A DNA stretch of 40,184 nt from Desulfobacteraceae bacterium (lineage in GTDB: Bacteria; Desulfobacterota; Desulfobacteria; Desulfobacterales; Desulfobacteraceae). The DNA is taken from the NCBI GenBank assembly GCA_004796375.1, contig QZLA01000205.1:1-40184 (forward strand), read 5' to 3'. Position 1 is the first letter of the stretch. Each line of letters starts with the position of its first letter. The position numbers were made by a program, and so were the translations under genes. Under the pieces are notes generated by a model. That model saw nothing but the letters and a program-made list of their open reading frames with translations. It did no database searches and was not told the origin of the DNA. Positions 606-39,992 of the stretch are shown here, piece by piece.

Positions 606-617
606 TGAATCTCCTGC

Positions 618-1643: not shown

Positions 1644-1645
1644 TT

Positions 1646-2905: not shown

Positions 2906-3066
2906 CAGGTTTTCCTTAGTTTTCTCAATAACTTTTTGTACATCAATGACCTGTAAAGCTCTGAAGAAAGGACAAGCAAATCATTCCATTTTTTATATAT
3001 TTTCTCTTTCATGTGTTTCTCCTCTATCGAGAAAGAATGAACCGTAAAGTCGGCCTAAAAAGGGTT

Positions 3067-4023: not shown

Positions 4024-4130
4024 AGCTCCGCTCTGCTGGTTACAAGATTTTTATCCACAGTCTTGTCGTTCTATATCATTCATTATCGGCACAACTATTC
4101 AATCACTGAATAATTAGTTGGCCGACTCGA

Positions 4131-6011
4131 TCATAATTGATACTGACTCAGCCTTCTCAGCGCCGTTAAAAAACCCTGGCCATTATTCAGATGTCCCCTC
4201 CAGACTTCCGGCACCCAGGTATCCTGGTAACCGGAAAATAGCGGCATGATTTTGTCAAAGTCAATATCCCCTTCATGGATCTGCATCCCTTCTCCATCCA
4301 CACCATAGGCGTCTCCCATGTGGATATGGCGGATATAGGGATACACAATACGGACAAATTCGCCCAGGTCTTTTTCTTTTGCATTGCAGTAGAGTGCGGC
4401 ATGTGAAATATCAAATACAATATTGACATTGGTTTCTTTACAAAAACCTGCAATTTCATCAGGGTCCATAAAAAAATTGCCCTTCCAGGCACCTCCGAAA
4501 TACCAGGGATAGGGGGGGAGATTCTCCAATAACAGGTGACTGCCAACGGTATCAATCTCCTTAAGGGATTGAATCAGTTTTTCTCTTAACCTGTTTTTAT
4601 CTAATTTAGCTTTCAGGCTCATGGCGCCAGGATGGGCGATTAGTTTAGGGATTCCTTTGAAATGGGGTGCCAGTTTTGCCGTGAGGGCGGCAGTCGTGTT
4701 GACAAGGTCCACGGAGGCTTTCCGGATATCCTCGCTGGCACTGCACAGGTCCATGAGTTTGCCGTCCAGGTACTCGGCCACATGCACTACCAGTTCCTGA
4801 GAGTATTGGCGGGTTAAATCAAATTCAAGGTCAAGGTCCTTTTCCGCCAGATGGATTTCAATGGCTTTGGGGTTCAATTCGATGATGTCATGGAAGTCGG
4901 AAAATCTTGAGATAAGCCCCCATTTACTCTGAAATGATTTTTCAATGTCCCAATGACTGTCCTTGGCTGGATCAAGATCTCTTTCAAGGAAAACACCGTT
5001 TGCTTCAATATCCCTGTCCAGGGTCCGGCCGACCAGGTCATCCAGGTTGGACGGTGCAAGCCCTTTACCCGGTCCTTTTATTGAGACCATGTCACGGGTA
5101 ATCCGGGTGCCTTTTGACAGGAACCGGCTGGCGATGAGGCTTTTACCGAACACTTCGCGATTGAGCACTTCTCCCCGGAGCAGGAAACGATCCTCCTTGG
5201 CCATGGCAAGATCTGCAATCCGTATATCCCGAACCATTCGTTTAAATTCAAAGGGCTCAAGGCTGATTTTATGGTCTGGGCCATCCATCTTTTTATCCCA
5301 GGTGATGTGCTTCTCAATGATGGACGCTCCCATGGATGCGGCTACAAGCGGGATAACGATGCCGATGTCATGACCGGAATAACCAACAGGGACATTATAC
5401 TGCTTGAGCCAACCGATCATTTTCAGGTTCACTTCCCTGGGCCAGACCGGGTAGGCGCTTCTGCAGTGAAGAATAGCGAATTCGGCACCACAGTCCTTAA
5501 GCAGATCAATGGTTTTCCTTATCTCACCCCGGTAGGACATCCCGGTTGAAACTATCATGGGCAGGCCTTTGGAACCGACATGAGACAAAAGGTCCACGTT
5601 ATTCAGGTCAGCAGATGCAATTTTGTATGCATGGATATCCAATGTCTGGAGAAAATCGGCACTGGTCCTATCAAACGGCGTGCATATAAAGTCAAGGCCC
5701 TTTTCAATGCAGTAACCATTGAGCTGAGCCATCTCATTTTCTGACAGTTCGACCTGTTTCAGGATCGGGATCATGTATTGGAAATGCTGCTCATATCTTT
5801 CAGGGTGCTCCAATATTTCCCTCGGGTACAGGCTGGGCAGGTGGCGCTTCTGAAACTTTACGGCGTTTGCCCCAGCGCTCTGGGCTTCGTCAATCAACTG
5901 TTTGGCAAGATCTATATCACCGTTGTGATTAATGCCGATTTCCGCAATGATATAGGTCGGGCTTCCTTCCCCAACGGTTTTTCCATTGATATGGATCACA
6001 GAGGTGGGCAT
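4131..6011 (-). CDS. NeuB-family sialic/nonulosonic acid synthase with SAF domain, fused to a C-terminal xylose-isomerase-like TIM-barrel (sugar phosphate isomerase/epimerase) domain
   Basis: The ORF at 4131..6089 has its likely start at internal Met 6011..6009 (MPTSVIHINGKTVGEGSPTYIIAEIGINHNGD, the canonical NeuB N-terminus). A SAF domain follows (GEVLNREVFGKSLIASRFLSKGTRITRDMVSIKGPGKG). A further ~270 aa carry a TIM-barrel-like signature (LLLENLPPYPWYFGG...VNIVFDISHA...IRHIHMGD). Confidence 0.8.
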   Translation of the reverse strand: MPTSVIHINGKTVGEGSPTYIIAEIGINHNGDIDLAKQLIDEAQSAGANAVKFQKRHLPSLYPREILEHPERYEQHFQYMIPILKQVELSENEMAQLNGYCIEKGLDFICTPFDRTSADFLQTLDIHAYKIASADLNNVDLLSHVGSKGLPMIVSTGMSYRGEIRKTIDLLKDCGAEFAILHCRSAYPVWPREVNLKMIGWLKQYNVPVGYSGHDIGIVIPLVAASMGASIIEKHITWDKKMDGPDHKISLEPFEFKRMVRDIRIADLAMAKEDRFLLRGEVLNREVFGKSLIASRFLSKGTRITRDMVSIKGPGKGLAPSNLDDLVGRTLDRDIEANGVFLERDLDPAKDSHWDIEKSFQSKWGLISRFSDFHDIIELNPKAIEIHLAEKDLDLEFDLTRQYSQELVVHVAEYLDGKLMDLCSASEDIRKASVDLVNTTAALTAKLAPHFKGIPKLIAHPGAMSLKAKLDKNRLREKLIQSLKEIDTVGSHLLLENLPPYPWYFGGAWKGNFFMDPDEIAGFCKETNVNIVFDISHAALYCNAKEKDLGEFVRIVYPYIRHIHMGDAYGVDGEGMQIHEGDIDFDKIMPLFSGYQDTWVPEVWRGHLNNGQGFLTALRRLSQYQL

Positions 6012-6979
6012 TGGTTCTCCTCCACGGCCGTTTGCCAATAAATTAGAAGGTCTTTCAAGGTTTTGGTCAGCGGTATCATCGGTTCCCACCCGGTCAGTGT
6101 TCGGAAAAGGGTGTTATCACACACCATGATAGGGATGTCAGAAGGCCTCATGCGATCAGGGTTGGGTTCAATTTCAACCAAGACCCCGGAAATGTCCAAA
6201 AGCATCGAAAGAATGCTTTCAAGGCTGAGGGACTTACCTGATCCGATGTTATACGCCTGGCCGGGAAGGCCATGCTCAAGGGCGAGCCAGTAGGCTTTTA
6301 CCGCATCTCTGAAATCCGTGAAATCCCTGTGGGCCTCAAGGTTGCCCACCATGATGACGGGTTTGTTCCTGCCGGCCTTTATCTGGGCAATCTGCTTGGC
6401 AAAGTTGGATAGCGCGAAAATAGGACTTTGCCGTGGGCCGGTCAGGTTAAACACACGTACACGGATGATATCCATTCCGTAATTATGATGATACTGAAAG
6501 GCCAGCATATCCTGGGCGACTTTACTGACGCCGTAGGGACTTACCGGTTTGAACGGCACGGTTTCAGACACAGGCAGGTCACTTTCAGAAATCAGACCGT
6601 AGCTCTCCGAACTTCCTGTGACAAGGATTCGTGCATTAATGCTATTTTTCCGGACGGCTTCAAAGATATTTAGCTGGCAGGTGATGTTGTTTGAAATGGT
6701 TTGCACCGGATTTTTCCAGCTCTCTGCGACACTGGTTTGCGCGGCAAGATGGTAGATTTGATCCGGCCGCAGGTCCCTGATAAGGGTATTGACCGTTTCT
6801 GTGTTACACAGGTCACACTCATGCAGGTGGATCTGATTTTCAATTTGATGTAGAAACTTATGGCTGTCTCTGGGATGAGCAATGCCGTAAACCTCAATAT
6901 CCGGCATGGTCAATAGATATTCGGCAAGGTAACTGCCGGTCATCCCCGTAACCCCCGTGATTAGTGCCTTCATACCCAT
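5996..6979 (-). CDS. NAD(P)-dependent epimerase/dehydratase (SDR), GDP-mannose 4,6-dehydratase / GDP-4-keto-6-deoxymannose reductase-like
   Basis: 327 aa. N-terminus ALITGVTGMTGSYLAEYLL carries the GxxGxxG motif. The catalytic YxxxK appears in SPYGVSKVAQDML. The GNLEAHRDFTDFRD region resembles GMD/RMD family members. Confidence 0.8.
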   Translation of the reverse strand: MGMKALITGVTGMTGSYLAEYLLTMPDIEVYGIAHPRDSHKFLHQIENQIHLHECDLCNTETVNTLIRDLRPDQIYHLAAQTSVAESWKNPVQTISNNITCQLNIFEAVRKNSINARILVTGSSESYGLISESDLPVSETVPFKPVSPYGVSKVAQDMLAFQYHHNYGMDIIRVRVFNLTGPRQSPIFALSNFAKQIAQIKAGRNKPVIMVGNLEAHRDFTDFRDAVKAYWLALEHGLPGQAYNIGSGKSLSLESILSMLLDISGVLVEIEPNPDRMRPSDIPIMVCDNTLFRTLTGWEPMIPLTKTLKDLLIYWQTAVEENQCPPL

Positions 6980-7599
6980 AGCCTGGAGACCATCTTGATT
7001 TTGATTTGATCATCTATTTTACCTTCCAGCATTTCGAGAATCTCATTTTGTCTGGCAAAGGATGTGATCATCAACGCATCTGGCCGGATCTCGTTAATTT
7101 TTAAAGGGGGGTGTATCATGGTACCGAAGAACAGTTTACCGATCTTATTGGGATCATTATCCACCACACCTGTAAGTGTCAGCTCTGTCTTCTTGATCGC
7201 AGAATAAACAATTTCTGCCGTATCGGACGCGCCGTATAAAACAACGGTCCGGATCCCTTCAGCATAACTTTCTAGTAGGATTTCAACGATTTCACTGCGG
7301 ACTCCGGCATAAAACTGCACGATCTCTGCAGAAAAGGCCAGAAAATTGGTGGCAACGTACTCTTTGCCCTGATCCGTCAGGTGGTATGTCATGCTCCGGT
7401 TGGAGCTTCCTGAAGTGTAAATCAGGTTTTCACTGGAAAGCTCCTTGATGTAGTTATTGACCATTGAACTGCTGAGACTGGCTTGCTGCCCGAGAAATTT
7501 TTGTGTGATATCCGGATTCTTCTGTATTAATGAGAGGATGGAAAATTTGCGGTATTGTTTGCTGGGTTCCAGATAGTTTGACGAATATGGTTCAATCAT
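6970..7599 (-). CDS. Winged-helix transcriptional regulator with C-terminal Rossmann-like (CoA-binding/Rex-like) domain
   Basis: 209 aa. The N-terminal half is MarR/wHTH-like (SILSLIQKNPDITQKFLGQQASLSSSMVNNYIKEL). The C-terminal half is VVLYGASDTAEIVYSAIKK...GVVDNDPNK, like the nucleotide-binding domain of Rex/NeuD-type proteins. It is the first gene of the minus-strand glycan cluster. Confidence 0.55.
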   Translation of the reverse strand: MIEPYSSNYLEPSKQYRKFSILSLIQKNPDITQKFLGQQASLSSSMVNNYIKELSSENLIYTSGSSNRSMTYHLTDQGKEYVATNFLAFSAEIVQFYAGVRSEIVEILLESYAEGIRTVVLYGASDTAEIVYSAIKKTELTLTGVVDNDPNKIGKLFFGTMIHPPLKINEIRPDALMITSFARQNEILEMLEGKIDDQIKIKMVSRLWV

Positions 7600-7637
7600 T
7601 TTAGTTTACCCCACTTGACTGATCATTCAGTGACTGA

Positions 7638-9209: not shown

Positions 9210-11497
9210 GGGGATACCTTTCTCACCTCCACCAGGTTGGTGTGCTGGGGATTGCCTTTTGCCAGTGGTGACGGCCGCTGGCGGGTCAAAATATTAATGG
9301 ACCCGTTGGTATCGTTTCCCTGTTTGTCTGGCGTGTACCACGCTCCCTGGGGCAGGGAAAGCACTCCCGGCATGATTCGGGGCGTCACCTTGGCCGGGAC
9401 TTGTGTCTGTCCGCAATCGTTGAACACACACACAAGATCGTTGTGTGAAATGCCCCGGGCCTCGGCATCCAAGGGGTTGATCCACAAGGACTGTACGGCC
9501 GCCTCCTGAAGCCACGGATTGTTGCCGTAAGAGCTGTGGGTCCGCTGCTTATGATGGTGGCCTATCAGTTGAAGGGGATACCTGGCGGATTCAGGCGTAC
9601 CCGGCATCCCCCATGTCTGATGATATTCGGGAAGGGCACTGATCACATCACCATCCGGCAGTTGCCAGGCATGTGCAATATCCCACAAGCGTTTTGAAAA
9701 TATTTCGATCTTTCCGGATGGTGTTTTCAGCGGCGCCGCCTCGGGATTTTCCCGGAAATCCTTGAGCCCGACAATGGGCGGACCCTGTCTCTTCCACTTG
9801 AACAGGCCGGTTTGCATGGCCTGCTCGAAATTTTTCGGCAGGTCATCGCGTACCTGTCTGCACTGGTGGTACATGTATGTCACCCACTCATCCCGGGTGC
9901 GGTCTTCTGTGAATTCTCGTCCCACACCCAGGCGGTTTGCGATATCTGAACAGATTTCAAAAAGGGTCCGGCACTCTCCCAGCGGCTCTATGGCTTTTGG
10001 GCGAAGGATCAGTGCGGCCATCTCCACGCCGTATCCCTGGTAGGCAAGATCGCTCTCTTCAAAAACACTAACTCCGGGCAAGACAATATCCGCGTATGTT
10101 GCACTGCTAGTCATGACATTATCGATCAGTACAATCATTTCACAGGCCGTCTCATCCGACAGGATGTCATGGGTGTGACGGATATCCGAATGCTGGTTCA
10201 CCAAGGTGTTGCTGGCAAAACTCCAGATAAATTTAATGGGTGTTTCAAGGTGCTGCTTTCCCATCAGCCCGTGGGTGATGTCGGTAAACCCTTTGGGATC
10301 CTCGATGGCTTGGGTCCACAAAAAGCAGGGGATGGAGGTGCTGACCGGGTTGGATCCCGTGGGAATAGAGGGAAACGCAAAGCCGAAGGGTGCTTCCCGT
10401 CCGCCGCTGTTGCCGCCCTGGATGCCCACATTGCCGGTGAGGATGGGCAGCATGCAGATGGCGCGGGCGGTCTGTTCACCATTGGCATGCCGCTGAGGCC
10501 CCCACCCCTGGGCAATGTAGGCAGGCTTTGCCGTGCCGATCTCCCGGGCGAGCTGAATGATGCGCTCTGCTGGAATTCCTGTAATGCTCGATGCCCATTG
10601 AGGCGTCTTGGGGATACCGTCCGGCCCCGTACCCAGGATATACTCCTTGTAACTGTTTCCTGCTAAAAATCCTGGCGGCATGGTGGCGACATCATATCCC
10701 ACGCAATAGCGGTCCAGAAACGGTTGGTCCACCAGGTCCTCGGTGATCAGGACGTGGGCAAGGGCACAAACCAGGGCCGCATCCGTTCCCGGGCGAATGG
10801 GAATCCATTCATCTGCCGCAAGGACCGCGGTATCGGAATGCCGCGGATCGATGACAATAAGCCTGACATTGCTCTGTTTTTTGACCCGTGCAAGATCATA
10901 GGTGGAACCACCTCCGCTCATGCGGGTTTCGGCCGTGTTGTTGCCGAAAAAAACGGCAAGCTTGCTGTTGGCCATATCAGAGAGGTTATTGGCGCACTCG
11001 TGGACACCGTATGTATACTGAAGCCCATGGGTGATCTGGGCGGTGCTGTAGGAGTTGTAATGGTTGAGTTGGCCGCCCAGAAGATTCATCAGGCGGTCGA
11101 TCTGCTCGCGGCCGGAAACCACCCCTCCCAGGTTCCCGGTACCGTAAATGCGATGAACCGCCTCGTTACCGTGGGTTTTGATGACCTGGTCCAGTTTGGT
11201 GGCAATCTGTTCGATTGCTTCTTCCCAGGAGATGCGGGCAAATTGACCCTCACCTCTTTTCCCGGTCCGTTTGAGAGGATGAAGCAGCCGCTCGGGTGAA
11301 TAGATCCATTTTCGCAGGGCTCTTCCCCGAAGACAGGCCCGGATCTCGTGGGCACCAGGGGTGTCCTCCCCGGTGTTGTCGGTCTCGATTTTCACGACGG
11401 TCCCATCTTTCACATGCACGCGGAGGGCACAACGGCTGCCGCAGTTTACATTACAGACCGACCAGAGTATTTTATCAGGGCATGTGGTATCTGTCAC
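9206..11497 (-). CDS. Molybdopterin (bis-MGD) oxidoreductase catalytic subunit of the DMSO reductase (DmsA) family, lacking a Tat signal peptide
   Basis: 763 aa. The N-terminus ILWSVCNVNCGSRCALRVHVKDGTVVKIETDN aligns with mature E. coli DmsA (VIWSACTVNCGSRCPLRMHVVDGEIKYVETDN). The GTG start has GGAGG 7 nt upstream and an in-frame TGA immediately before it, so no twin-arginine leader is possible. Confidence 0.85.
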   Translation of the reverse strand: MTDTTCPDKILWSVCNVNCGSRCALRVHVKDGTVVKIETDNTGEDTPGAHEIRACLRGRALRKWIYSPERLLHPLKRTGKRGEGQFARISWEEAIEQIATKLDQVIKTHGNEAVHRIYGTGNLGGVVSGREQIDRLMNLLGGQLNHYNSYSTAQITHGLQYTYGVHECANNLSDMANSKLAVFFGNNTAETRMSGGGSTYDLARVKKQSNVRLIVIDPRHSDTAVLAADEWIPIRPGTDAALVCALAHVLITEDLVDQPFLDRYCVGYDVATMPPGFLAGNSYKEYILGTGPDGIPKTPQWASSITGIPAERIIQLAREIGTAKPAYIAQGWGPQRHANGEQTARAICMLPILTGNVGIQGGNSGGREAPFGFAFPSIPTGSNPVSTSIPCFLWTQAIEDPKGFTDITHGLMGKQHLETPIKFIWSFASNTLVNQHSDIRHTHDILSDETACEMIVLIDNVMTSSATYADIVLPGVSVFEESDLAYQGYGVEMAALILRPKAIEPLGECRTLFEICSDIANRLGVGREFTEDRTRDEWVTYMYHQCRQVRDDLPKNFEQAMQTGLFKWKRQGPPIVGLKDFRENPEAAPLKTPSGKIEIFSKRLWDIAHAWQLPDGDVISALPEYHQTWGMPGTPESARYPLQLIGHHHKQRTHSSYGNNPWLQEAAVQSLWINPLDAEARGISHNDLVCVFNDCGQTQVPAKVTPRIMPGVLSLPQGAWYTPDKQGNDTNGSINILTRQRPSPLAKGNPQHTNLVEVRKVSP

Positions 11498-11618
11498 TCA
11501 ACAACCTCCAAGGGTACGGATATGATTTGAGCGCCATGCTTTCTTCCTTTCTTGACCTTAGGTTATGCTTAACATATACCTCTTAGTTGAATTAACATAG
11601 GGTGAAGCCAAAAGGAAA

Positions 11619-12617
11619 TCAATACTCGTAGAACAGCTTTTGAACCTCCTCCCCGGTCCGGGGTTTTAACAGGGCCAGCATCAAGAGTATCCTGGCTTTT
11701 GCCGGATTTAACTCATCTGAAACAATAAACCCGTGGGCATCGTCATTGACCTCCACATTCCGGCCCACCGTGCCCGTGGGCACCCGGGAGGCCCGGACAA
11801 TGAAGATCCCCTTTTTCGCGAATTCTGCAGCCGCTTTGATAGATCCTTGGTTCATATTGCCATTTCCGTCTCCGGCAATCACAATCCCCCTGGCGCCTCT
11901 TGAAACCGAAGCGTCGATCAGGTCCGGCGGCATATCTGCACATGCATAGATGATATCCACCCGGGGAAGCGGCAGATCATAGTCGGTCGTGAATTCACTT
12001 TCACGGGTGTGTTTTCTGAAAGATCCCCTGAAAAATTTGACCTCTCCGTATATCACGGTGCCCATGAGCCCGGTCACCGGGGAGAGAAACGTTTCCACTG
12101 ACGTGGTGTTGGTCTTGGTCAGGGAGTGGGCACCGTGGATCCTGTCATTCATCACCACCATGACACCACGCGCCTTTGCTTCCGGGTCTGCAGCCACGGC
12201 CACGGCATTGAACAGGTTCAGGGGGCCGTCTGCACTGACAGCGGTTGACGGACGCATGGATCCGGTCATGATGACAGGTTTGGTGCAGTTGACCGTGAGA
12301 TTGAGAAAAAAGGCGGTCTCCTCGATGGTATCGGTGCCGTGGGTCACCACAATGCCGTCAATCTCCTGTTTTTCCAGGGTCTCATTGATTTTTCGGGCGA
12401 GCCGGGTCATAATCTCAAAAGACATGTCCTGGGAGCCGATATTGCAGACCTGCTCCCCATCAACGCGGGCAATCTGATCCAGATCCGGCACCGCCTTGAG
12501 CATCTCTTTGATATCAAGCTGCCCGGAGGTGTAGCCTGCCTTGGTGGAGGAACCTGCACGGCCGGCGATGGTGCCGCCGGTGGCCAGTACGTATATATCG
12601 GGTAGATTCTTTATCAT
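11619..12617 (-). CDS. L-asparaginase
   Basis: 332 aa. N-terminus IYVLATGGTIAG carries the TGGTIAG asparaginase signature. GTDT and other family motifs are present, and there is no signal peptide. Confidence 0.85.
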   Translation of the reverse strand: MIKNLPDIYVLATGGTIAGRAGSSTKAGYTSGQLDIKEMLKAVPDLDQIARVDGEQVCNIGSQDMSFEIMTRLARKINETLEKQEIDGIVVTHGTDTIEETAFFLNLTVNCTKPVIMTGSMRPSTAVSADGPLNLFNAVAVAADPEAKARGVMVVMNDRIHGAHSLTKTNTTSVETFLSPVTGLMGTVIYGEVKFFRGSFRKHTRESEFTTDYDLPLPRVDIIYACADMPPDLIDASVSRGARGIVIAGDGNGNMNQGSIKAAAEFAKKGIFIVRASRVPTGTVGRNVEVNDDAHGFIVSDELNPAKARILLMLALLKPRTGEEVQKLFYEY

Positions 12618-12633
12618 TTTTCTTTACTTTTCA

Positions 12634-14007
12634 TTAACAGTTGACATAGCACAGGGCCAGTCCGCCCAGGGAGGTTTCCTTATACCGGGTGTTCATATCT
12701 TTGCCCGTTTCCATCATGGTCTGAACCACTTCATCAAAGCTTACCTTCTGGCGGTCAGGATCTCCCGCATCCGCCAGGATATGGGCATTCACCGCCGTGA
12801 CCGCTCCCACGGCGTTCCGCTCAATGCAGGGAATTTGGACATAGCCGCCCACAGGGTCGCAGGTCATGCCCAGTTGATGTTCCAGAGCAATTTCAGCGGC
12901 ATTTTCCAGCCGCTTCATATCGCCACCCATGGCGTGGGTCATGAACGCTGCAGCCATGGAAGAGGCGACCCCGACCTCGCCCTGGCACCCCACTTCAGCA
13001 CCTGAGATACTGGCATTTTTTTTGGCAATGAATGCAACGACTGCCGCAGCCAAAAGTCCTTTTCTCAGTTGGTTGCGGTCAAGGCCGTGATGGTGTTTGA
13101 GCATGTATACCACACCGGGCAATACCCCTGAAGCACCCGATGTCGGCGCGGTGACGACACGCCGTCCGTCCGCGTTCTCCTCGGAGGCCGCCATGGCATA
13201 TGCATTGAGCAATCCTAAAAACCGGCCGCTCTCTTTGGACATTTTCAGGGCGTTTTCTCTCAAGACCTTTGCTTTTCGATGCAGGCCGATCGATCCGGGC
13301 AGCAGCCCGTCCTTTGAAAGCCCATTCGCCACGGAATCGTGCATGGCATCCAGAATGTGGTCCGTTTGTTTTTGGATATCCGCCTTGTCTTTACCGGTTA
13401 GCGCAGATTCATTTTCCAGCACCACCTGCTCCAGTGAGAGGCCGGTTTTCCGGATCAGTTCCTGTAAAGAGGTCATGTTCCAGTAAAGGTGTGGTGGCGA
13501 CAACGGCTTTTCAAGGACCTCTCCTTTGCACTGGATAAAGCCGCCGCCAATGGAATAATACTCTTTTTCAAGAATCAGGCGGTCCTTGTACCTCAAAATG
13601 AATCGCAGGGTATTGGCAAAGGGAAGGTTAGAACCTTCCTGGTTTTCAAAAATGATGTCACGGCCTGAAAACCGTATATATCCACTGCCCAAAGGAAGGT
13701 CATAAACGGTATCAAGGGATTTGAGCAGGCCATTGAGGGCATCACAGTCACAGGTTTCCGGCTCCCATCCCAGAAGGCCGCCCAGGATGGCTCTGTGGGT
13801 GCCATGTCCCATTCCGGTCAGGCTCAGGGAACCGAATAAATGCACCTTCAGGTCCAGGTCTTTCAAAGGCGGGTCAAGCGTTTCCATCTCCTCCCTGAAC
13901 AGGAGGGAGGCGCGCATGGGACCGATGGTATGGGAACTTGAAGGTCCGGGTCCGGCTTTGAAGATATCAAAAACAGATATGGAGATACAATCTTTCAGAG
14001 AGGACAT
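12634..14007 (-). CDS. sdaA: L-serine dehydratase (iron-sulfur-dependent L-serine ammonia-lyase, single-chain)
   Basis: 457 aa. The N-terminal motif SVFDIFKAGPGPSSSHTIGPM is the hallmark of Fe-S L-serine dehydratases. The length matches fused alpha/beta single-chain SdaA. Confidence 0.85.
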   Translation of the reverse strand: MSSLKDCISISVFDIFKAGPGPSSSHTIGPMRASLLFREEMETLDPPLKDLDLKVHLFGSLSLTGMGHGTHRAILGGLLGWEPETCDCDALNGLLKSLDTVYDLPLGSGYIRFSGRDIIFENQEGSNLPFANTLRFILRYKDRLILEKEYYSIGGGFIQCKGEVLEKPLSPPHLYWNMTSLQELIRKTGLSLEQVVLENESALTGKDKADIQKQTDHILDAMHDSVANGLSKDGLLPGSIGLHRKAKVLRENALKMSKESGRFLGLLNAYAMAASEENADGRRVVTAPTSGASGVLPGVVYMLKHHHGLDRNQLRKGLLAAAVVAFIAKKNASISGAEVGCQGEVGVASSMAAAFMTHAMGGDMKRLENAAEIALEHQLGMTCDPVGGYVQIPCIERNAVGAVTAVNAHILADAGDPDRQKVSFDEVVQTMMETGKDMNTRYKETSLGGLALCYVNC

Positions 14008-14034
14008 CGCGTATCCTTGTACCGATAGCTGGTC

Positions 14035-14664
14035 TTAGGGTTTATACTGTCTGAGCGCATCTGCCATGTCACGGCACAACGACTCGAGATTCCGGCTCTG
14101 GGCGGCGGCAAAAGCTTCAGGGCTGTCGATCCCGGATTCCTGGGTATACCGGCTGGTACGGATCAGCACTAACGCTTTGTCCGGGTTTCGGATGACTTCC
14201 CACCGGGCTGCCAGCAGGGCATCCTTGCCGGGTGTGTTGTCCAAACGGATCACTTCGATCGGTACCTGGTAATCCAGGCGGGCACGGCTGTCCCATGACA
14301 ATACAATCACCCCATCCCTGTTCAGCAGGGTGGATAGCCGCTCCAAGGTGAGGCGGGAGATAGTATCCTTCAAAGGTTCTGCCCAGTTGTCAAACTCCAT
14401 GAGCTTGAGCCGGTTGGGCGCCGTCCGGGTGACCATCTGGGGCCGGTCCAGGTAGGGAGGGATTTTAAAGGGGCCCAGTCCGACCTTGATCACATGGTTT
14501 TGGTCCGCCAGCATATCCACGGATACCGTATGCGAATCAGGGTCCTGGGGTGTTGATTCCAGCAGGTAAAAACGGGTGGGTGCACTTTTACCGGTGCATC
14601 CGCCCAGAAAGATCAGTATTAAAACAAGCGCTGTCAGTCCATACACCCTATACGTTTTTTCCAT
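14035..14664 (-). CDS. ABC-type transport auxiliary lipoprotein (PqiC/DUF330-like) of the Mla/Mce system
   Basis: 209 aa. It has a signal peptide with a lipobox (LILIFLGGC). It lies immediately downstream of the MCE gene with a 3-nt gap. Confidence 0.65.
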   Translation of the reverse strand: MEKTYRVYGLTALVLILIFLGGCTGKSAPTRFYLLESTPQDPDSHTVSVDMLADQNHVIKVGLGPFKIPPYLDRPQMVTRTAPNRLKLMEFDNWAEPLKDTISRLTLERLSTLLNRDGVIVLSWDSRARLDYQVPIEVIRLDNTPGKDALLAARWEVIRNPDKALVLIRTSRYTQESGIDSPEAFAAAQSRNLESLCRDMADALRQYKP

Positions 14665-28343: not shown

Positions 28344-30116
28344 ATGCATTCGGATGGCACCGGCAGGCGGTTTGAGTTGGATTGGATCCGGGTCATGGCG
28401 ACCCTGGCCGTGTTTCTATACCACAGCACCCGGTTTTTCAACCTGGGCGATTGGCACATTAAAGACAGCACCACCTTTGTATGGGTGGAGATATGGAACC
28501 GGTTTGCCACCATTTGGATCATGCCCCTGTTTTTCGTCATTTCCGGGGCAGGTCTCTTTTTCACACTGAAGCATGCCAACGGTTTCAAACGGTTTTACAC
28601 GGGTAAGTTTTCACGATTAATGGTTCCTGTCCTGCTGGCAACCGTGACACACAGTGCCCTGCAGATTTATCTTGAACGGGTCACCCATGGACAGTTTACC
28701 GGATCGTTTTTTTCATTTCTGCCGACCTACTTTTCCGGCCTGTATCTGTTTATCGGCAGTGCCGGGAATTATGCTTTTCACGGCATGCACCTGTGGTTTC
28801 TTCTTTTCTTATTCCTCTACAGCCTCTTGTGCTATCCGTTATTCAAATGGATGCAGGGAGGCGGTCAAGGCATTGTACAGCGAATCACCGGAATAACGGC
28901 CCATCCCGGATGGATCATTCCGTGGTTTGCCATTCCCCTTCTGGTGGTAAAATGGGGTGTTCCCCCGGGGGTGGCCGGTATCGGTAGCGGCGGCTGGGGA
29001 TTTGTGTACTATATCTGGTTTCTGGTTGCAGGGTTTATCATTGTATCCAGCCATAGAATGCTACACTGCATCAAGCAAAGCATGATGCTCTCCATGGTCC
29101 TGGCAATCCTTTTGTCCACGATGTATCTTTACGGGCAGTTCATCCCTGTCGGGGTTTCATTGCCGGTACCCGGTCCCTGGGGGCTTTCGCTGCTGCGCTG
29201 TCTAAGTGTCTGGGCCTGGATATTCACCTTCCTGGGGGCAGGTATGAGATACCTGTCTTTTGATCATCCAGTCCTGGGGCAGCTCAATGAGGGGGTCCTG
29301 CCGTTTTATATTCTTCACCAGACCATCCTGCTTATGATCGGGTATCTTGTTATTCCTCTTGAAATTCATACCCTCTTGAAATGGAGCGTGATTACCCTGG
29401 GATCTTTCCTGGTGATCGTTGGTGTGTACTGGGCAGTGATAAGGCCGGTGAATATGCTGCGTTTTTTCTTTGGGATGAAAACCGCTCACCCGTTTTACAA
29501 TCTGTTCAAGAGACCTGTGGTGTCGCTGCTACCATTGCTGGTGTATATCGGAATGATCATGTTTGCAGCAATGAATCCATCCGCAGGATTCGCGGCAAAC
29601 CGCTCACCCAAACCCATTGTCTTTGATAAAAACAATGATATTGTCCTGAATAGCCGTGCCATCACCCACGACTCCGGCACAGGGGTTGCCGTGATCAATG
29701 ACAGCAGCGCCTCGACCGGACAGGCCATTGAGTTCGATAGCGGAGCGAGTCCGACGGCCATGGCAGACCCCGAGGTTTTTGTCGACCTGGGATTCGGGGC
29801 ACCCGCAGGCAGGTATCTGCTCTGGGTCAGGGGCAGGTGTGATACCGGCAGTGTTTACTCTGATTCCGTTTGGGTGCAGGCGGATCACCAGATCGGGACC
29901 TCCCACGGCAGGGTGCTGGGAAACTGGCAGGATATCCATCCGGCCGGCAGCTATGCCTGGGCCGGCAACAGTATGAATCCGGTGGCCATCCTGCTCAGGT
30001 ATTCAGGCAGTCATATCCTCCGGATCCAGCCACGGCAGACGCCCCACAGGATCGATCAGATCTGGTTGAGCCGCAGCCAGCAGCATATGCCGGATACATC
30101 AGACCCGATCAGGTAA
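28344..30116 (+). CDS. Acyltransferase family 3 (OafA/YrhL-type) membrane protein with C-terminal ~180 aa soluble beta-sandwich-like domain (not SGNH)
   Basis: 590 aa. N-terminus FELDWIRVMATLAVFLYH matches the AT3 signature (RxxxLDxxR...H). About 10 TM helices follow. The C-terminal region VFDKNNDIVLNSRAITHDSG...YLLWVRGRCDTGSVYSDSVWVQAD is hydrophilic. Confidence 0.75.
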   Translation: MHSDGTGRRFELDWIRVMATLAVFLYHSTRFFNLGDWHIKDSTTFVWVEIWNRFATIWIMPLFFVISGAGLFFTLKHANGFKRFYTGKFSRLMVPVLLATVTHSALQIYLERVTHGQFTGSFFSFLPTYFSGLYLFIGSAGNYAFHGMHLWFLLFLFLYSLLCYPLFKWMQGGGQGIVQRITGITAHPGWIIPWFAIPLLVVKWGVPPGVAGIGSGGWGFVYYIWFLVAGFIIVSSHRMLHCIKQSMMLSMVLAILLSTMYLYGQFIPVGVSLPVPGPWGLSLLRCLSVWAWIFTFLGAGMRYLSFDHPVLGQLNEGVLPFYILHQTILLMIGYLVIPLEIHTLLKWSVITLGSFLVIVGVYWAVIRPVNMLRFFFGMKTAHPFYNLFKRPVVSLLPLLVYIGMIMFAAMNPSAGFAANRSPKPIVFDKNNDIVLNSRAITHDSGTGVAVINDSSASTGQAIEFDSGASPTAMADPEVFVDLGFGAPAGRYLLWVRGRCDTGSVYSDSVWVQADHQIGTSHGRVLGNWQDIHPAGSYAWAGNSMNPVAILLRYSGSHILRIQPRQTPHRIDQIWLSRSQQHMPDTSDPIR

Positions 30117-34218: not shown

Positions 34219-35394
34219 ATGACAAACCTCTATCTTGCAAAAAATCAATTGGCAGGGAAAAAAGTGGAACTCAGCGACATCACCATCAGGGATGGTCTGC
34301 AGTCGCTGGAGACCGTTATTGACACCGATACCAAGGTCAAATATCTGGAAGGTTTGATCCTGGCTGGATTCAAACGCATGGAGGCCACCAATTACGGCCA
34401 CCCGAAATTTGTCCCCTTTTTTCCTGACGCGACTGAAGTGTTAAAGCGCCTGCTGAACAGTGAAACCAAGGGACCGGACGGAAAAACCGTTGGTGAAATG
34501 ATGAAGCAGAACGGCGGTGATGTGGAACTGACGGCAGTGGCCATACATGAAAGCGGCGCTGCAAGGGCGTTTAAAGATTTTGATGCCGGGCATGGCCCTG
34601 ACCGTATCCTGCAGATGACCTCTACCTGCCCTGAACATCAAAGGGCCAATTCAGGCAAGACCCATGACCAGTATTTTGAAATGACCGAGCAGGTCATTAA
34701 AGAGGCTCATAGCCGCGGGATGGTGGTCAACGGCACGGTCAGCACCATCTGGGGCAGCCCCTTTGAAAAGTTCAATAAGCAATACAGTATGGACGAGAAA
34801 CTGGATATTGCCATCTCTTTTGTGAAGCGGTATTTGAATTGCGGGGCAGATGATATCGAGCTTGCTGATCATGACGGTTCGGTGACGGACTATCACAAGT
34901 CCTTTGAATTTTTCAGCCGTGTCCTTGATCCCCAGGAGATGGGGACCGGACCGGACGGCCGGAACTATGCCGATCCCGAACTTTACATTGCCCACTTTCA
35001 TACCATGAATATGGCCTCGGCCCTGAGGAATGCAGCGGCTGCGCTCAAGGCCGGGATTATCCGTTTTGAATCCTGTCTTTCCGGTATCGGCGGACAGCCG
35101 GCCAACGCCGTGGACGGCGTGACCATTGAAGGACGGGAAGGGGATTATTACAGCGATCATTTCAACCACGGGTTGATCTCAACCGAAGACATGGTGACCA
35201 TGTTTCACCAGATCGGGGTGGATACCGGCATTGATCAAGACATGCTCATCAGCCTTGGAACAGATTTCAGGAAAGACGTTGTGGATACCTTTGAGGCCCA
35301 GCAGAAAAAATTGGGTCGTGAATACATGAAGTGCCGTTCCTATATGCTGACCACCGGAAAACTGCCGGAAAGCGTCACCCAGCTATACCAGTAG
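34219..35394 (+). CDS. DRE-TIM metallolyase family protein, HMG-CoA lyase-like (HMGL-like / pyruvate carboxyltransferase domain)
   Basis: Start at the internal Met of the 34132 ORF, which has an RBS. ITIRDGLQS corresponds to the PRDGLQN motif. HFHTMNMASALRNAAAALKAGIIRFESCLSGIGGQPA aligns with HMG-CoA lyase HCHDTYGQALAN...VAGLGGCPYA. Confidence 0.65.
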   Translation: MTNLYLAKNQLAGKKVELSDITIRDGLQSLETVIDTDTKVKYLEGLILAGFKRMEATNYGHPKFVPFFPDATEVLKRLLNSETKGPDGKTVGEMMKQNGGDVELTAVAIHESGAARAFKDFDAGHGPDRILQMTSTCPEHQRANSGKTHDQYFEMTEQVIKEAHSRGMVVNGTVSTIWGSPFEKFNKQYSMDEKLDIAISFVKRYLNCGADDIELADHDGSVTDYHKSFEFFSRVLDPQEMGTGPDGRNYADPELYIAHFHTMNMASALRNAAAALKAGIIRFESCLSGIGGQPANAVDGVTIEGREGDYYSDHFNHGLISTEDMVTMFHQIGVDTGIDQDMLISLGTDFRKDVVDTFEAQQKKLGREYMKCRSYMLTTGKLPESVTQLYQ

Positions 35395-35499
35395 AATAAC
35401 GTTCTTATCTCTTGCCGCCGGCAGGGTCTGAAAGCGGATCGCACGCACCCGATTGGTTTTCGGTCCTGCCGGCCGGCTTTTACCCCCTGCTCCGTTTCC

Positions 35500-37425
35500 C
35501 TAAACCGCGGTCTTTATGGTAAAGCCCTTTGCAATGTGGTTGCGCACAAAATAGATCATTAAAACACCGGGAATGATAGAAAGAACGGTCATCGCCATTA
35601 CCAGGCCAATATCCGTCCTGAAGGTAAAGAGGGTTGAAATTGCCATACTAATGGGTTTGCCGCTCGTTACGGTCAATATGCGTGCAAAGACAATCTCCAC
35701 CCAGGAAAACATAAAGCAGAAAAACGCAGTCACAGCAATACCTGGTCCCATCAGGGGAATGAGTATCCTGGTAAAAAATTGAAAAAAAGAATGACCGTCA
35801 ATAAAGGCGATTTCATCGATTTCCCTTGGGATCGCAGCAAGAAAGCTTTCCAGTACCCAGATCGAAATGGGAAGATTAAATGCACAATGTGCCAATGCGA
35901 TACCGAGCGGCCTGTTGACCAGGTCTATTTGCAAAAATATCAGGAAAACAGGGAGAACCATGACCACCGGCGGCATCATTCGCAGCGCCAGGGTACAAAA
36001 AAACAGATATTTATCTCCTGAAAATGTATAGCGGGAAAATCCATAGGCAGCCAAAAACGCCACAGGCAGGGTAATGAGAATGTTTAATGTGACATAGGCG
36101 ATTGAGTTCAGGATTGAACCGGTCAAAACGGGATTTTGAAACACATGGATGTAATTGGACAGGGTAAATTCTCCAAAGGGAACCATCTCCCCCCTGAGTG
36201 TTGAGTGAAGACTGACAGATACAAGGGGGATCAGGGGCAGGAACAGGAAAACAATATAGGCAGTTGTCGGAAGCCATCTGAAGTGCAGGGGGGATTTTAA
36301 AAGCAGTCCTGTTAATTTGGGTTTACCAACGAGTTGAGGGGCAAGCCTATTGAACAGAAAGACAAAAGGCATACACAGGGCAAGGCTCACAAGGGTAACC
36401 ATACAACTGAGGTAAAATACAGGCAGACCCGAACTTGCGACGTTATCCAGAATCCAGCCGGCCAGCCCGGGGTTGATGTAATGGTAGAAAATGCCGTTCA
36501 AAAACATAAGGAGCATGGTATTCTGCCCCAGCCACAAGATTGTTTTCCGGGCAGGGGTCATTCCGGAGATAAAGAGAACACACGCGCAGCCGGCAATGGC
36601 GGTCAGTGGAAAGAGCAGGAAGTGGCCGTATGAGGCAAACATGATCACCACATGGTTGTAAACGTGGAAATTGAAGGGCCCGTTGTTTAATTGATAGGTA
36701 AAAAAGACCATGAAAAAGGCGGCAACAGCCGCAGGCACTAAAATTTTTGTGGACACTTTTTGAATCAGAAAATGCCGGCGCCTCAGAAAAATGCCCAAAA
36801 GATAAAATGAGTAAAGGGTAATTGCCCCGTGGATAAAAAAATAGTTCCAACCGATAACTCGTTCCTTTAACGGGTTAAATATATCGAATTCCAAATTCAG
36901 CCAGTATCCGGCGACATAAAAACCAACGGCAGCGGCAAGGATCTTTGCATTGGAATTTTTCAAAAAACGAAACACCGTGTAATGAACAAGTTCCAGGCCA
37001 ATAATCAGCAGCAGGAACCAGGAGGGTACGCAAAAGGAAGGCAGGCCAAAAACGGTTAAAACCGTCCCTCTAAAATATCCAACCAGAGACGGCAGCGGCA
37101 GACCATAGAATTTTCCTGAAAAAAACAGGGGCGGAATCATCATGACCAGCGTTAGAAAAATAAACGGCAGCAGCCGGGTTGAAAAACAATGGGTGATGAA
37201 TCGGCCCACACGCCAGTTGGCAAGGTCTTCTTTGGCAACATAGCCTGCAATGACAACAAAAAGGACCATGTGAAACGAGTAGGTGAATTTATACAGGCTT
37301 ATTCCGGCCGGGTTTTTCAGTATCATGAACTCTTCGACAAAATGGCCGAAAAAGACCAGGGCGATGGCATAAAACCGTGCAATATCAATGGTAAGAAATC
37401 TGTTTGTTTTTGACCCGGCATCCAT
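35500..37425 (-). CDS. Fusion protein: N-terminal acyltransferase family 3 domain + C-terminal ABC transporter permease (MalG/UgpE-like TMD with EAA loop)
   Basis: A single 641 aa ORF. Residues 1-~370 carry the AT3 signature (RFLTIDIARFYAIALVFFGH followed by multiple TM helices). The C-terminal ~270 aa form a 6-TM binding-protein-dependent permease with the EAA motif IDEIAFIDGHSFFQFFTRILIPL. Confidence 0.75.
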   Translation of the reverse strand: MDAGSKTNRFLTIDIARFYAIALVFFGHFVEEFMILKNPAGISLYKFTYSFHMVLFVVIAGYVAKEDLANWRVGRFITHCFSTRLLPFIFLTLVMMIPPLFFSGKFYGLPLPSLVGYFRGTVLTVFGLPSFCVPSWFLLLIIGLELVHYTVFRFLKNSNAKILAAAVGFYVAGYWLNLEFDIFNPLKERVIGWNYFFIHGAITLYSFYLLGIFLRRRHFLIQKVSTKILVPAAVAAFFMVFFTYQLNNGPFNFHVYNHVVIMFASYGHFLLFPLTAIAGCACVLFISGMTPARKTILWLGQNTMLLMFLNGIFYHYINPGLAGWILDNVASSGLPVFYLSCMVTLVSLALCMPFVFLFNRLAPQLVGKPKLTGLLLKSPLHFRWLPTTAYIVFLFLPLIPLVSVSLHSTLRGEMVPFGEFTLSNYIHVFQNPVLTGSILNSIAYVTLNILITLPVAFLAAYGFSRYTFSGDKYLFFCTLALRMMPPVVMVLPVFLIFLQIDLVNRPLGIALAHCAFNLPISIWVLESFLAAIPREIDEIAFIDGHSFFQFFTRILIPLMGPGIAVTAFFCFMFSWVEIVFARILTVTSGKPISMAISTLFTFRTDIGLVMAMTVLSIIPGVLMIYFVRNHIAKGFTIKTAV

Positions 37426-37435
37426 GAGCGCCTCT

Positions 37436-38272
37436 CTAACCTTCCTTTAATTCCCGGACGGCAATCACTTTTTTAAAGATCCACGATATAATGATTATGA
37501 TAAAAAAATAGATGACTGCCCTGGCAGACGCAGGGCCGTAATCCTGTGAAATAATCTCCTGACCCAGTTCCATTGCCAGAAACGTGGTCGTACTGCGGGG
37601 CCCCCCGGCATTCAGGCGGAAGGGCTCGATAAACACCATGAAGCTGTCGATAAACCGAAGCAATAGCGCCATAATCAATACCATTTTCATCTTCGGCAGT
37701 TCTATATATCGGAACACATCCCATCGGGATGCCCCATCAATGGCAGCGGCTTGATAGAAGGCCGGGCTGATGGTGGTTAAGCTCGAATAGCAAAGGAATA
37801 CCACAAGGCTCGTCCAGTGCCAGACATCCATCAACACAATGGCAGCCCATGTCGGAAACGCCTTTAATTCCCAACCGGACCCAAATGCAATTGCCAGAAA
37901 TACATGCCAGATCATGGCAATCATATTCCAGGGCACCAGTAACGGCAGTGCCATGCAGACCAGGCATACCGAACTGAACACCCCTTGTTTGGGGATGTGC
38001 AACGCAATTGCGATACCCAGGGGGATTTCGATCGCCAAGACAAGGGTTGAAAATAAAAGGCTGCGGCCAAAGGTTTCCCAGAACCGTAGAGAGCCCAGTA
38101 CGTCATGATACCATTCAAGCCCGACCCAAACCTTCGAATTGATGTGGAAGATATCATAGAACGAATAATTCACAATCATGATTAACGGCAGAACCGCTAC
38201 AAACAAAAGCAATACAACCGCAGGGACAGCAAAAACCCAAGCCTTGTTATTTTTTATTTTTTTCATGACCAC
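37436..38272 (-). CDS. ABC transporter permease (MalF/UgpA-like TMD)
   Basis: 278 aa, 6 TM helices. The EAA motif reads AAAIDGASRWDVFRYIELP. It lies 10 nt upstream of the fusion permease gene on the same strand. Confidence 0.8.
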   Translation of the reverse strand: MVMKKIKNNKAWVFAVPAVVLLLFVAVLPLIMIVNYSFYDIFHINSKVWVGLEWYHDVLGSLRFWETFGRSLLFSTLVLAIEIPLGIAIALHIPKQGVFSSVCLVCMALPLLVPWNMIAMIWHVFLAIAFGSGWELKAFPTWAAIVLMDVWHWTSLVVFLCYSSLTTISPAFYQAAAIDGASRWDVFRYIELPKMKMVLIMALLLRFIDSFMVFIEPFRLNAGGPRSTTTFLAMELGQEIISQDYGPASARAVIYFFIIIIISWIFKKVIAVRELKEG

Positions 38273-38483
38273 TCACGCGAAGCCCAATTTATCCTGTCTG
38301 TCTGATCTGACCTTTATCCACATAACATGAAAACGTGATAATTTCTCGTATAAACCGTCTTTTTTGACTTGTACTATCAAGAATTAACATCAATAAAATC
38401 GCTGGTTGCTATTTTTGTTATTTTCTTTTATATCCCGAAAAGTGTTCTTTAACCCAGGCTTTTATGAAAGGAGTCCTTTGAAG

Positions 38484-39992
38484 ATGGAGACGGTAAGTTC
38501 TATATTGGCAGCTGTTTTTGCAGGAACATGGATCACGAACATACTGATTGCTGCAGTGGCGATTGGAGCAGGATTTTTCAACTGGAAAATTGTCAAACAG
38601 ATTCTTGGGTGGCGAATTGTTGTTCCAACCAATGAGGTGCATATTAACCAGAGCGGGGCAGGTACCCAGGCGTATGGTCGCGGACTGGATAATGGCAATG
38701 TATATTACAAGTGGCCCATTTGGATTCCAAAACTCGGTCTGACCACCATTATACTCCCCACCTCAATCTTTGATATCGATTTGGACGGATATGATGCCTA
38801 TGATAAGGGCCGTCTGCCGTTTACAGTGGATGTTAAAGCATTTTTCAAGGTTGAAGATGCTGAAGAAGCCGCGCAGCGCGTTGAGAATTTTGGTGAGCTC
38901 AAAGAGCAGCTCAGGGATATTCTTAGAGGCTCTGTCCGTACGATTCTTGCAACATCTGATATTGAAACCATTCTCAGTGACCGAAGCAAGTTTGGGGATG
39001 AGTTCACCAAAGAGGTGACTGAACAGTTGAAATCCTGGGGTGTTAATCCCGTTAAAAATATAGAATTTATGGACATTCGTGACAGTCATGATTCCCATGT
39101 TATTGCCAATATCATGGCCAAAAAGAAATCAGAGATCGAAAAAGACAGCCGCATAGAGGTCGCCAACAACCAGAAAGAAGCCAAGATGGCGGAAATTGAT
39201 GCGGCCCGGGAAGCACAGCTTAGGGATGAGGATGCAAAAAGAGAGGTTGGTGAGAAACAGGCGGAAAGAGAAAGATTGGTCGGTAAGGCAAATGAGAGCT
39301 CCCAGCAGGAAATCAAGGAAGCCGCTAAACTGACGGCTGAAAAGGAGATGGCCGTTAAAAAAGTCGAAGAAGAAAAACGTGCTGAAATAGACCGCAATGT
39401 CGCAAAGATCAAGGCCGATCAGGAGCGGGAGGTTAAAGTGGTCCAGGCGGAAGCTGCGGCACAGGCAGCCGAAAAGCAGAAACAGGAGCTTGCCCATAAA
39501 GCCGAAGCCGATCTTATCCAGGAGCAAAAGAAAGCCCAGGGTATTAAAGCTGTGGGTGAAGCTGAAGCGGATTCCCTCAGGGCCAAGGAACTTGCGCCCA
39601 TCCAGGCACAAATTGAGCTTGCCAAAGAGATCGGTGAAAATGAGGGATACCAGAAATACCTTCTCGGGTTGGAAGAGGTTCAGGCGTCCATTGAAGTCGG
39701 TAAGGAAAAGGCAAAAGCACTCGTTGCAAGTGATGTCAAAATCATTGTCACTGCCGGTTCCACAGAGAGCGGTTTTGATTCTGTTATGGATGTCTTCAGT
39801 GCAAATGGCGGTACAAAACTCGGCGGGATGATCGAAGGATTTAAAAACACACCAATGGGCCAGGAAATTCTGGGCAAGATGGGCCTTGATATCATTAAAA
39901 CACCCGAGTCTAAAGAGAGGCCTTCTGTTGCAAAAAATGAAATCAAGGACAGTACAGTTGATGCGGGGTACGCCGATACCAAGGCTGAGTAA
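38484..39992 (+). CDS. Flotillin / SPFH (band-7) domain protein (YqiK/FloT-like)
   Basis: Start at METVSS, with an AAAGGAG RBS ~10 nt upstream (the ORF-track start is 38406). An N-terminal TM helix precedes the SPFH domain. A long Glu/Ala/Lys-rich coiled-coil flotillin domain follows (EAAREAQLRDEDAKREVGEKQAERERL...). Confidence 0.85.
   Translation: METVSSILAAVFAGTWITNILIAAVAIGAGFFNWKIVKQILGWRIVVPTNEVHINQSGAGTQAYGRGLDNGNVYYKWPIWIPKLGLTTIILPTSIFDIDLDGYDAYDKGRLPFTVDVKAFFKVEDAEEAAQRVENFGELKEQLRDILRGSVRTILATSDIETILSDRSKFGDEFTKEVTEQLKSWGVNPVKNIEFMDIRDSHDSHVIANIMAKKKSEIEKDSRIEVANNQKEAKMAEIDAAREAQLRDEDAKREVGEKQAERERLVGKANESSQQEIKEAAKLTAEKEMAVKKVEEEKRAEIDRNVAKIKADQEREVKVVQAEAAAQAAEKQKQELAHKAEADLIQEQKKAQGIKAVGEAEADSLRAKELAPIQAQIELAKEIGENEGYQKYLLGLEEVQASIEVGKEKAKALVASDVKIIVTAGSTESGFDSVMDVFSANGGTKLGGMIEGFKNTPMGQEILGKMGLDIIKTPESKERPSVAKNEIKDSTVDAGYADTKAE

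Follow-up and report, generated by a model that had tools for sequence, protein, structure and literature searches.

What would an ATP-binding cassette (ABC) importer do with a membrane acyltransferase built into one of its own subunits, and to which transporter family does such a subunit belong? The question is raised by two adjacent minus-strand genes of a Desulfobacteraceae bacterium of the sulfate-reducer type (assembly GCA_004796375.1, contig QZLA01000205.1), which lie at 35500 to 38272 of the stretch of 40,184 nucleotides that we analysed and that is called the window here. One of them encodes a GlpP′-like ABC permease (P′), and the other encodes an AT3 acyltransferase domain and a GlpQ′-like ABC permease domain (Q′) in a single open reading frame (ORF), AT3::Q′. 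We found that the P′Q′ permeases form a paralogous clade of their own within the glycerol ABC importer family GlpSTPQUV, that the fusion is real and conserved, being neither an artefact nor a pseudogene, and that the AT3 subfamily is repeatedly linked to Glp-type transporters, be it beside the operon, unfused together with P′Q′, or fused to Q′. A gene fusion is strong evidence of two proteins acting together, and this one is, as judged from its sequence, a link of the "Rosetta stone" type between membrane acyl transfer and a small-molecule ABC importer.

The AT3::Q′ fusion and its conservation

The fusion ORF (35500..37425, minus strand, 641 aa) matched Pfam Acyl_transf_3 at aa 13-351 with 65.4 bits (cut-off, 31), covering profile positions 4-321 of 326, and BPD_transp_1 at aa 453-634 with 45.1 bits (cut-off, 26.4). 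An earlier note on this DNA had placed an AT3 domain and a MalG-like permease in one ORF with about 16 transmembrane helices in all, and both statements held. The AlphaFold2 model (108 aligned homologues; mean pLDDT, 79.9; pTM, 0.69) has 10 helices at aa 11-361, a 22-residue linker, and 6 helices at aa 384-634, 16 in total; the helices were counted on this model, a crude Kyte-Doolittle scan having given overlapping, uninterpretable segments. The AT3 (TmAT-fold) domain with its 10 helices thus occupies 36343..37425 (aa 1-361), and the permease domain, which is of the MalG/SugB type and has six helices, 35500..36276 (aa 384-641). The linker between them (36277..36342, aa 362-383, containing APQLVGKPKLTGLLLKSPLHFR) is predicted to be cytoplasmic; it holds four Lys or Arg residues and no Asp or Glu, and this basic character fits both the cytoplasmic placement and an N-in topology of the two domains. 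With its score above the hidden Markov model threshold and its six-helix core, the permease half is a type I ABC importer transmembrane domain (TMD), and P′ likewise matched BPD_transp_1 (aa 83-267; E = 2.6e-15). The fusion has the folds of both AT3 proteins and type I ABC TMDs, with the R-X10-H motif of the former and the EAA loop of the latter, and its permease is homologous to GlpQ but probably a paralogue, not an orthologue. Among the NCBIfam models, the AT3 half matched no subfamily, and the permease matched only far under the equivalog cut-offs.

The possibility that faulty sequencing or assembly created the fusion, or that it is a decaying pseudogene left over from a glp operon, has a practically negligible probability. 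In its favour one may cite the in-frame stop in the linker of one related locus (L022) and the P′ remnant of only 84 aa that two others (L007 and L014) retain, both described below. For the window, however, it is refuted by several observations. AT3::Q′ is one continuous ORF in nine further independently assembled loci (10 including the window), among them that of the Olavius symbiont (Delta 1) and those of several Desulfosarcinaceae metagenome-assembled genomes, and the stop or frameshift between the domains that the earlier note had raised as a doubt is absent. The search for homologous fusions that the note had called for found the two-domain architecture in about 36 protein clusters of 66-99% identity. 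Assemblies that carry the fusion include GCA_033851995.1 and the metagenome-assembled genomes to which contigs CAXXYD010000002.1 and CAXXVS010000003.1 belong. A protein identical to the fusion occurs in two other metagenome assemblies, where the flanking genes are also the same. Finally, the linker sequence is conserved among the fusions, and both halves are under strong purifying selection, with ratios of nonsynonymous to synonymous substitution rates (dN/dS) of 0.085-0.14 for the AT3 half and 0.05-0.085 for the permease half.

In L022, a TAA codon (11129-11131) lies in frame exactly within the AT3-Q′ linker (…KYFA*HGLHFRWLPTT…), the downstream permease part lacks a good start codon, and P′ is on the opposite strand. 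This locus may represent a fusion that has recently broken, a stage before fusion, or a site of read-through.

In the window, P′ (37436..38272, minus strand) is 278 aa long when read from the GTG at 38272, but its true start is more probably the ATG at 38266, which would give 276 aa, the length at which it is called in loci L145 and L146. The spacer of 10 nt between P′ and the fusion (37426..37435, minus strand) carries a GAGAGG Shine-Dalgarno sequence ahead of the fusion's ATG, and the two genes are probably cotranscribed and translationally coupled. Consensus scans of 35200-38600 for promoters and terminators gave counts no higher than in shuffled sequences.

P′Q′ as paralogues of the glycerol importer permeases

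The earlier note had taken the two permeases for MalF/UgpA- and MalG/UgpE-like subunits of a sugar or oligosaccharide transporter. They turned out instead to be homologous to GlpP and GlpQ of the KEGG glycerol transport system: in comparisons with one complete glp-type operon (L004), P′ shows 45% identity to its canonical GlpP, and the Q′ half 47% identity to its GlpQ-type permease. The permease half is closer still (57-78% identity) to unfused permeases of about 270 aa, for which the JGI name is "glycerol transport system permease protein." In a tree, the canonical GlpQ clade, whose members share about 70% identity across phyla, is separate from the Q′ clade, which comprises the fusions, unfused cassette forms, and orphan pairs (Reinekea, Vannielia, and others), with members 59-61% identical to the window sequence.

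Both permeases carry the EAA coupling loop, as the note had stated, and both loops bear the signature of the Glp family, are nearly identical to those of canonical GlpP and GlpQ, and are conserved throughout the P′Q′ clade. In the loop of Q′, which lies between its helices TM4 and TM5 (35752..35823, minus strand, aa 535-558, EIDEIAFIDGHSFFQFFTRILIPL), D537, E538, G544, and P557 are invariant in 28 of 28 fusions and 50 of 50 unfused relatives, while all 28 fusions and 48 of the 50 unfused relatives have E535 and D543. In that of P′ (37694..37756, minus strand, aa 173-193, YQAAAIDGASRWDVFRYIELP), A176, D179, A181, F187, and P193 are invariant among 28 P′ sequences from several phyla, and G180 is found in 25 of the 28.

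The glycerol system itself has been studied experimentally as the uptake system GlpSTPQUV of Rhizobium leguminosarum VF39, and Cupriavidus and Ralstonia have homologous clusters that glycerol induces. The window pair shares with this system 45-47% identity and the family-specific EAA loops, and its relatives elsewhere adjoin glpR/DeoR, glpS, glpT, DUF2160 (glpU), glpV, and, in one checked locus, glpD. It differs in forming a separate clade, in lacking glpS, glpT, glpU, glpV, and glpR, and in bearing AT3 on Q′.

The note had also found no ATPase or solute-binding protein near the pair, and this proved true of the window as a whole: no solute-binding protein was found in its 40 kb, and the only ABC ATPase belongs to an unrelated Mla operon about 20 kb from the permeases. 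Nor does the window hold glpS, glpT, glpU (DUF2160), glpV, or glpR (DeoR). This orphan status is not peculiar to the fusion. We determined the neighbourhoods of P′Q′ pairs by a metagenome scan and individual look-ups and found that the pairs are generally without ATPase or binding-protein genes of their own. At 11 loci, P′-Q′ lies 2-4 kb from a complete glpS-glpT-glpP-glpQ-DUF2160-glpV operon (L063, L071, L072, L074, L076, L077, L083, L085, L087, L090, and L091), and in at least 7 of these 11 a DeoR gene stands directly upstream of P′. The usual proteobacterial order is DeoR-P′-Q′ adjoining the complete glp operon.

Because the whole P′Q′ clade is orphan and 11 loci adjoin a complete glp operon, the simplest reading is that P′Q′ would be a second membrane module that borrows in trans the GlpS and GlpT ATPases, and perhaps GlpV, of the canonical system, and this would explain the orphan status of the fused pair. 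Where P′Q′ accompanies the glycerol ABC operon, as it does in many bacteria, a single set of ATPases may serve two membrane modules. The literature searched contained no description of P′Q′ as a second permease pair of the glycerol ABC system.

Two of the related loci deserve separate mention. On the contig of the Olavius Delta 1 symbiont (L015), the gene of a full-length MalK-type ATPase (10123-11325; ABC_tran plus OB_MalK; 34% identity to GlpS) stands 7.5 kb downstream of the fusion, at the margin of the sequence retrieved for this locus, and its product may be an orphan energiser. In L077, a GlpD-type dehydrogenase gene stands between P′-Q′ and the glp operon, and a Znu-type zinc ABC operon (10781-14306) directly follows Q′. 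In Cupriavidus, zinc resistance rises when the glp ABC transporter is derepressed (PMC7912956); that Znu and Q′ are neighbours in L077 is probably a coincidence.

The AT3 domain and its genomic link to transporters

A scan of species-representative genomes for the AT3 subfamily yielded 50 loci, mostly from Desulfobacterota, and an unbiased clustering of the genes around them gave transporter components as the only strongly recurrent neighbours. AT3 is fused to Q′ or adjoins P′Q′ in about 11 species, and in 8 species of Desulfobacterota its immediate neighbour is a complete canonical glp operon, in three arrangements (in Desulfosarcina widdelii PP31, within 5 kb of the operon). It accompanies P′Q′ in three unfused gene orders, among them AT3>P′>Q′ and P′>Q′>AT3; the latter cassette is found in Desulforhopalus (sp. 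52FAK), with an AT3 of 39% identity. The stand-alone AT3 proteins have a C-terminal tail, PQLVGKPKL, whose sequence recurs as the linker of the fusion. The AT3 tree has the fused forms scattered among forms that stand alone, carry the remnant, or adjoin a canonical operon, which points to repeated fission, loss, and relocation. An exhaustive representative search revealed no second, more distant family of AT3-permease fusions, its best 150 matches all being single-domain proteins; this search cannot count the fusion clade, no full-length member of which is represented there.

At three loci (L007, L008, and L014), AT3 is followed by a P′ remnant of 84 aa, L007 and L008 carrying the same AT3 protein; in the rest of the 50 loci, AT3 is alone. 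The remnant ORFs (L007, 11071-11325; L008, 3322-3576; L014, 11128-11370) overlap the stand-alone AT3 gene and match the C-terminal ~80 residues of P′ with 60% identity; each may be a decaying remnant or a retained mini-protein.

The AT3 domain of the fusion retains the R-X10-H motif and is under purifying selection. This motif, R17-X10-H28 in TM helix 1 (37342..37377, minus strand), is the proposed acyl-CoA-binding and catalytic motif of AT3 proteins and was shown to be essential in OafA (PMC7448272). In an alignment of 28 fusions and 30 stand-alone relatives, R17 and H28 were invariant in all 28 fusions, and among the stand-alone proteins H28 was present in 30 of 30 and R17 in 29 of 30, with one alignment gap. 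All 28 fusions also share R84, E31, E32, H52, H199, and H315, as do essentially all 30 relatives. R84 may correspond to an arginine of RXXR, a motif that AT3 proteins have, with high though not absolute conservation, where TM helix 3 ends on the cytoplasmic side; the upstream arginine of this subfamily, R80, stands at a spacing of X3 and is present in 28 of 30 stand-alone proteins, variable among the fusions, and replaced by C in the window.

Two further positions vary together. Residues 200 and 266 (codons 36826-36828 and 36628-36630, minus strand) are E and H in all 30 stand-alone proteins and in 18 of the 28 fusions, and G and Y in the other 10, including the window, so that E200G and H266Y covary perfectly. 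Both residues are on the predicted periplasmic face of the AlphaFold2 model, which suggests that a Glu-His pair at the acceptor side may have been lost or altered. C80, G200, and Y266 may reflect either an acceptor site changed after the fusion or a reduced activity; simple decay is argued against by the strong purifying selection on the AT3 half, for which dN/dS between the window and its nearest relatives is 0.085-0.12, similar to that of the E/H-type fusions.

These findings led us to a reading to which we assign an even chance of being correct, namely, that the two genes encode the membrane module of a binding-protein-dependent ABC importer of the glycerol family (GlpSTPQUV) whose AT3 domain acylates the solute handled. 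GlpP′ and GlpQ′ would form a heterodimeric translocation module in which the cytoplasmic N terminus of Q′ is joined to AT3. The module would be energised by GlpS/GlpT-type ATPases encoded elsewhere in the genome and docking at the EAA loops, which would have been kept for that reason, and a GlpV-type binding protein might be used as well. An acyl group from cytoplasmic acyl-CoA would pass through the AT3 pore to the periplasmic face, as has been proposed for AT3/TmAT proteins (PMC9833829, PMC12423673), and there AT3 would acylate a hydroxyl of the transporter's glycerol-like solute or of a related molecule that it handles. A single pathway would then include both acyl transfer and transport.

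A bolder version, which we think unlikely, has AT3::Q′-P′ and GlpS/GlpT supplied in trans forming a supercomplex in which acyl-CoA-dependent O-acylation of a glycerol-like solute occurs at, or is obligatorily coupled to, passage through the importer ("vectorial acylation"). If true, this would be a new form of group translocation, with the first AT3 enzyme to have a small imported solute as its acceptor and, as a corollary, with P′Q′ as a widespread, unrecognised second translocation module sharing the ATPases of the canonical glycerol importer.

Several observations weigh against the solute-acylating importer, and some of them speak for other explanations. Neither partner strictly depends on the other, since P′Q′ in Proteobacteria occurs without AT3 and no transporter is near about half of the AT3 loci. 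The acceptors of the characterised AT3 enzymes are all glycans or glycosylated molecules, and none of these enzymes is known to act on glycerol or an imported solute. The AT3 of the fusion could accordingly be a classical O-acyltransferase of an envelope glycan (lipopolysaccharide, exopolysaccharide, or periplasmic glucan), for which P′Q′ would be only a scaffold, a localisation device, or a regulatory partner, and the solute not the acceptor. The precedent of every characterised bacterial AT3, which modifies an extracytoplasmic glycan or glycoconjugate, the transporter-free loci, and the polysaccharide genes and second AT3 protein in the window would all agree with this. We nevertheless regard it as improbable, since the 50 AT3 loci show no recurring glycan-synthesis neighbours but only parts of Glp-type transporters, in at least five arrangements, and since both EAA loops, for which a passive scaffold would have no need, are strongly constrained. 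The window subclade also has C80, G200, and Y266 where 28 to 30 of the 30 stand-alone relatives have R, E, and H, and its activity or specificity may have changed. Its AT3 half might even have ceased to be an acyltransferase and become an accessory transmembrane domain or a solute channel. The perfectly covarying replacements in 10 of 28 fusions, their predicted periplasmic location, the loss of R80, and the role of this kind once proposed for the AT3 domain of VanT lend this idea some colour, but with R17, H28, R84, and the five other residues named above invariant in every fusion, and with the window AT3 half as constrained as its E/H-type counterparts, we consider it distinctly unlikely.

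The remaining difficulty concerns the source of energy. No ATPase, binding protein, DeoR, or DUF2160 gene lies within 10 kb of the fused loci, save the ATPase of L015, and three P′Q′ loci (L010, L064, and L070), each with 9-10 kb of flank on either side, have no glp operon. These facts count against energisation by a glycerol system and would be expected if P′Q′, with or without AT3, were a facilitator, or a translocator driven by acyl-CoA, that works with neither an ATPase nor a binding protein. To our knowledge, however, no natural type I importer TMD pair works without nucleotide-binding domains; moreover, the coupling helices of both TMDs are conserved and canonical GlpPQ-like, with several residues invariant, and the pair adjoins glpS and glpT at 11 loci. 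An ATPase-free transporter thus has only a small probability.

Comparison with known systems and surroundings in the window

Reviews and structural surveys of AT3 proteins list AT3 alone, AT3-SGNH, AT3-racemase (VanT), and the eukaryotic NRF-AT3 as architectures (PMC7448272, PMC12423673), and the fusion partners in them are always soluble domains. An ABC permease is not mentioned as a partner in these sources, full-text searches for the domain pair gave nothing relevant, and the statement of the earlier note that it knew of no characterised example thus agrees with the literature searched. The AT3-SGNH proteins (OafA, OafB, OatA, and PglI) share with the fusion an N-terminal AT3 domain of 10 helices, the R/K-X10-H motif, and a second domain fused at the C terminus. 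In these, however, an 11th helix places the soluble SGNH domain in the periplasm, and the acceptors are envelope glycans, whereas the window fusion lacks the 11th helix, has a predicted cytoplasmic linker, and has a six-helix transporter subunit as the partner; the SGNH domain, the defining feature of that class, had no Pfam match in the fusion. VanT, in which AT3 is joined to a cytoplasmic serine/alanine racemase, is similar in linking AT3 on the cytoplasmic side of its C terminus to a partner from small-molecule metabolism, but this partner is a soluble enzyme and that of the window is a membrane transporter domain. The type I permeases of LpqY-SugABC (SugB) and MalFGK2 (MalG) differ in standing alone and in being encoded with an ATPase and a binding protein. 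In the HGSNAT/TmAT superfamily, identity to the window AT3 is only about 12%, the Pfam family is another one, and the acceptor of HGSNAT is a lysosomal glycosaminoglycan.

The acceptors and mechanism of AT3 proteins are still debated, and the fusion offers a natural two-domain construct with a transporter as the acceptor-presenting partner; for the ABC field, it is a testable case of chemistry coupled to transport. Two cultured relatives, Desulfosarcina widdelii PP31 and Desulforhopalus sp. 52FAK, could bring the question within reach of experiment.

The gene content of the window is Desulfobacterota-like and includes a class III (c3-type) cytochrome, a DMSO-reductase-type molybdoenzyme, the Mla operon, TrkAH, and polysaccharide genes; the closest named homologue is from Desulfosarcinaceae. 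Scans for Rfam families and tRNAs gave nothing in the window. The permease pair is flanked by an HMGL-like gene and by a flotillin gene, which are not conserved in other species. A link to genes of acyl-CoA metabolism (HMGL-like in the window; ECH, AMP-binding, and carboxyltransferase genes near other fusions) was rejected, because their recurrence at 4-5 of 50 loci is, by our estimate, about that expected by chance in genomes rich in such paralogues.

A second AT3 protein is encoded at 28344-30116 (plus strand, 590 aa; Acyl_transf_3 at aa 11-363) and continues beyond that domain with about 230 C-terminal residues that match no Pfam family. It was rejected as a paralogous partner, as it shows no BLAST-level similarity to the AT3 half of the fusion. 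At the other end of the window, a polysaccharide cluster (~600-7600) with GT4 and GDP-mannose-dehydratase-like genes contains an ORF of 652 aa (4131-6089, minus strand) that combines a NeuB (sialic-acid-synthase-like) domain, a SAF domain, and a xylose-isomerase-like TIM barrel (AP_endonuc_2).

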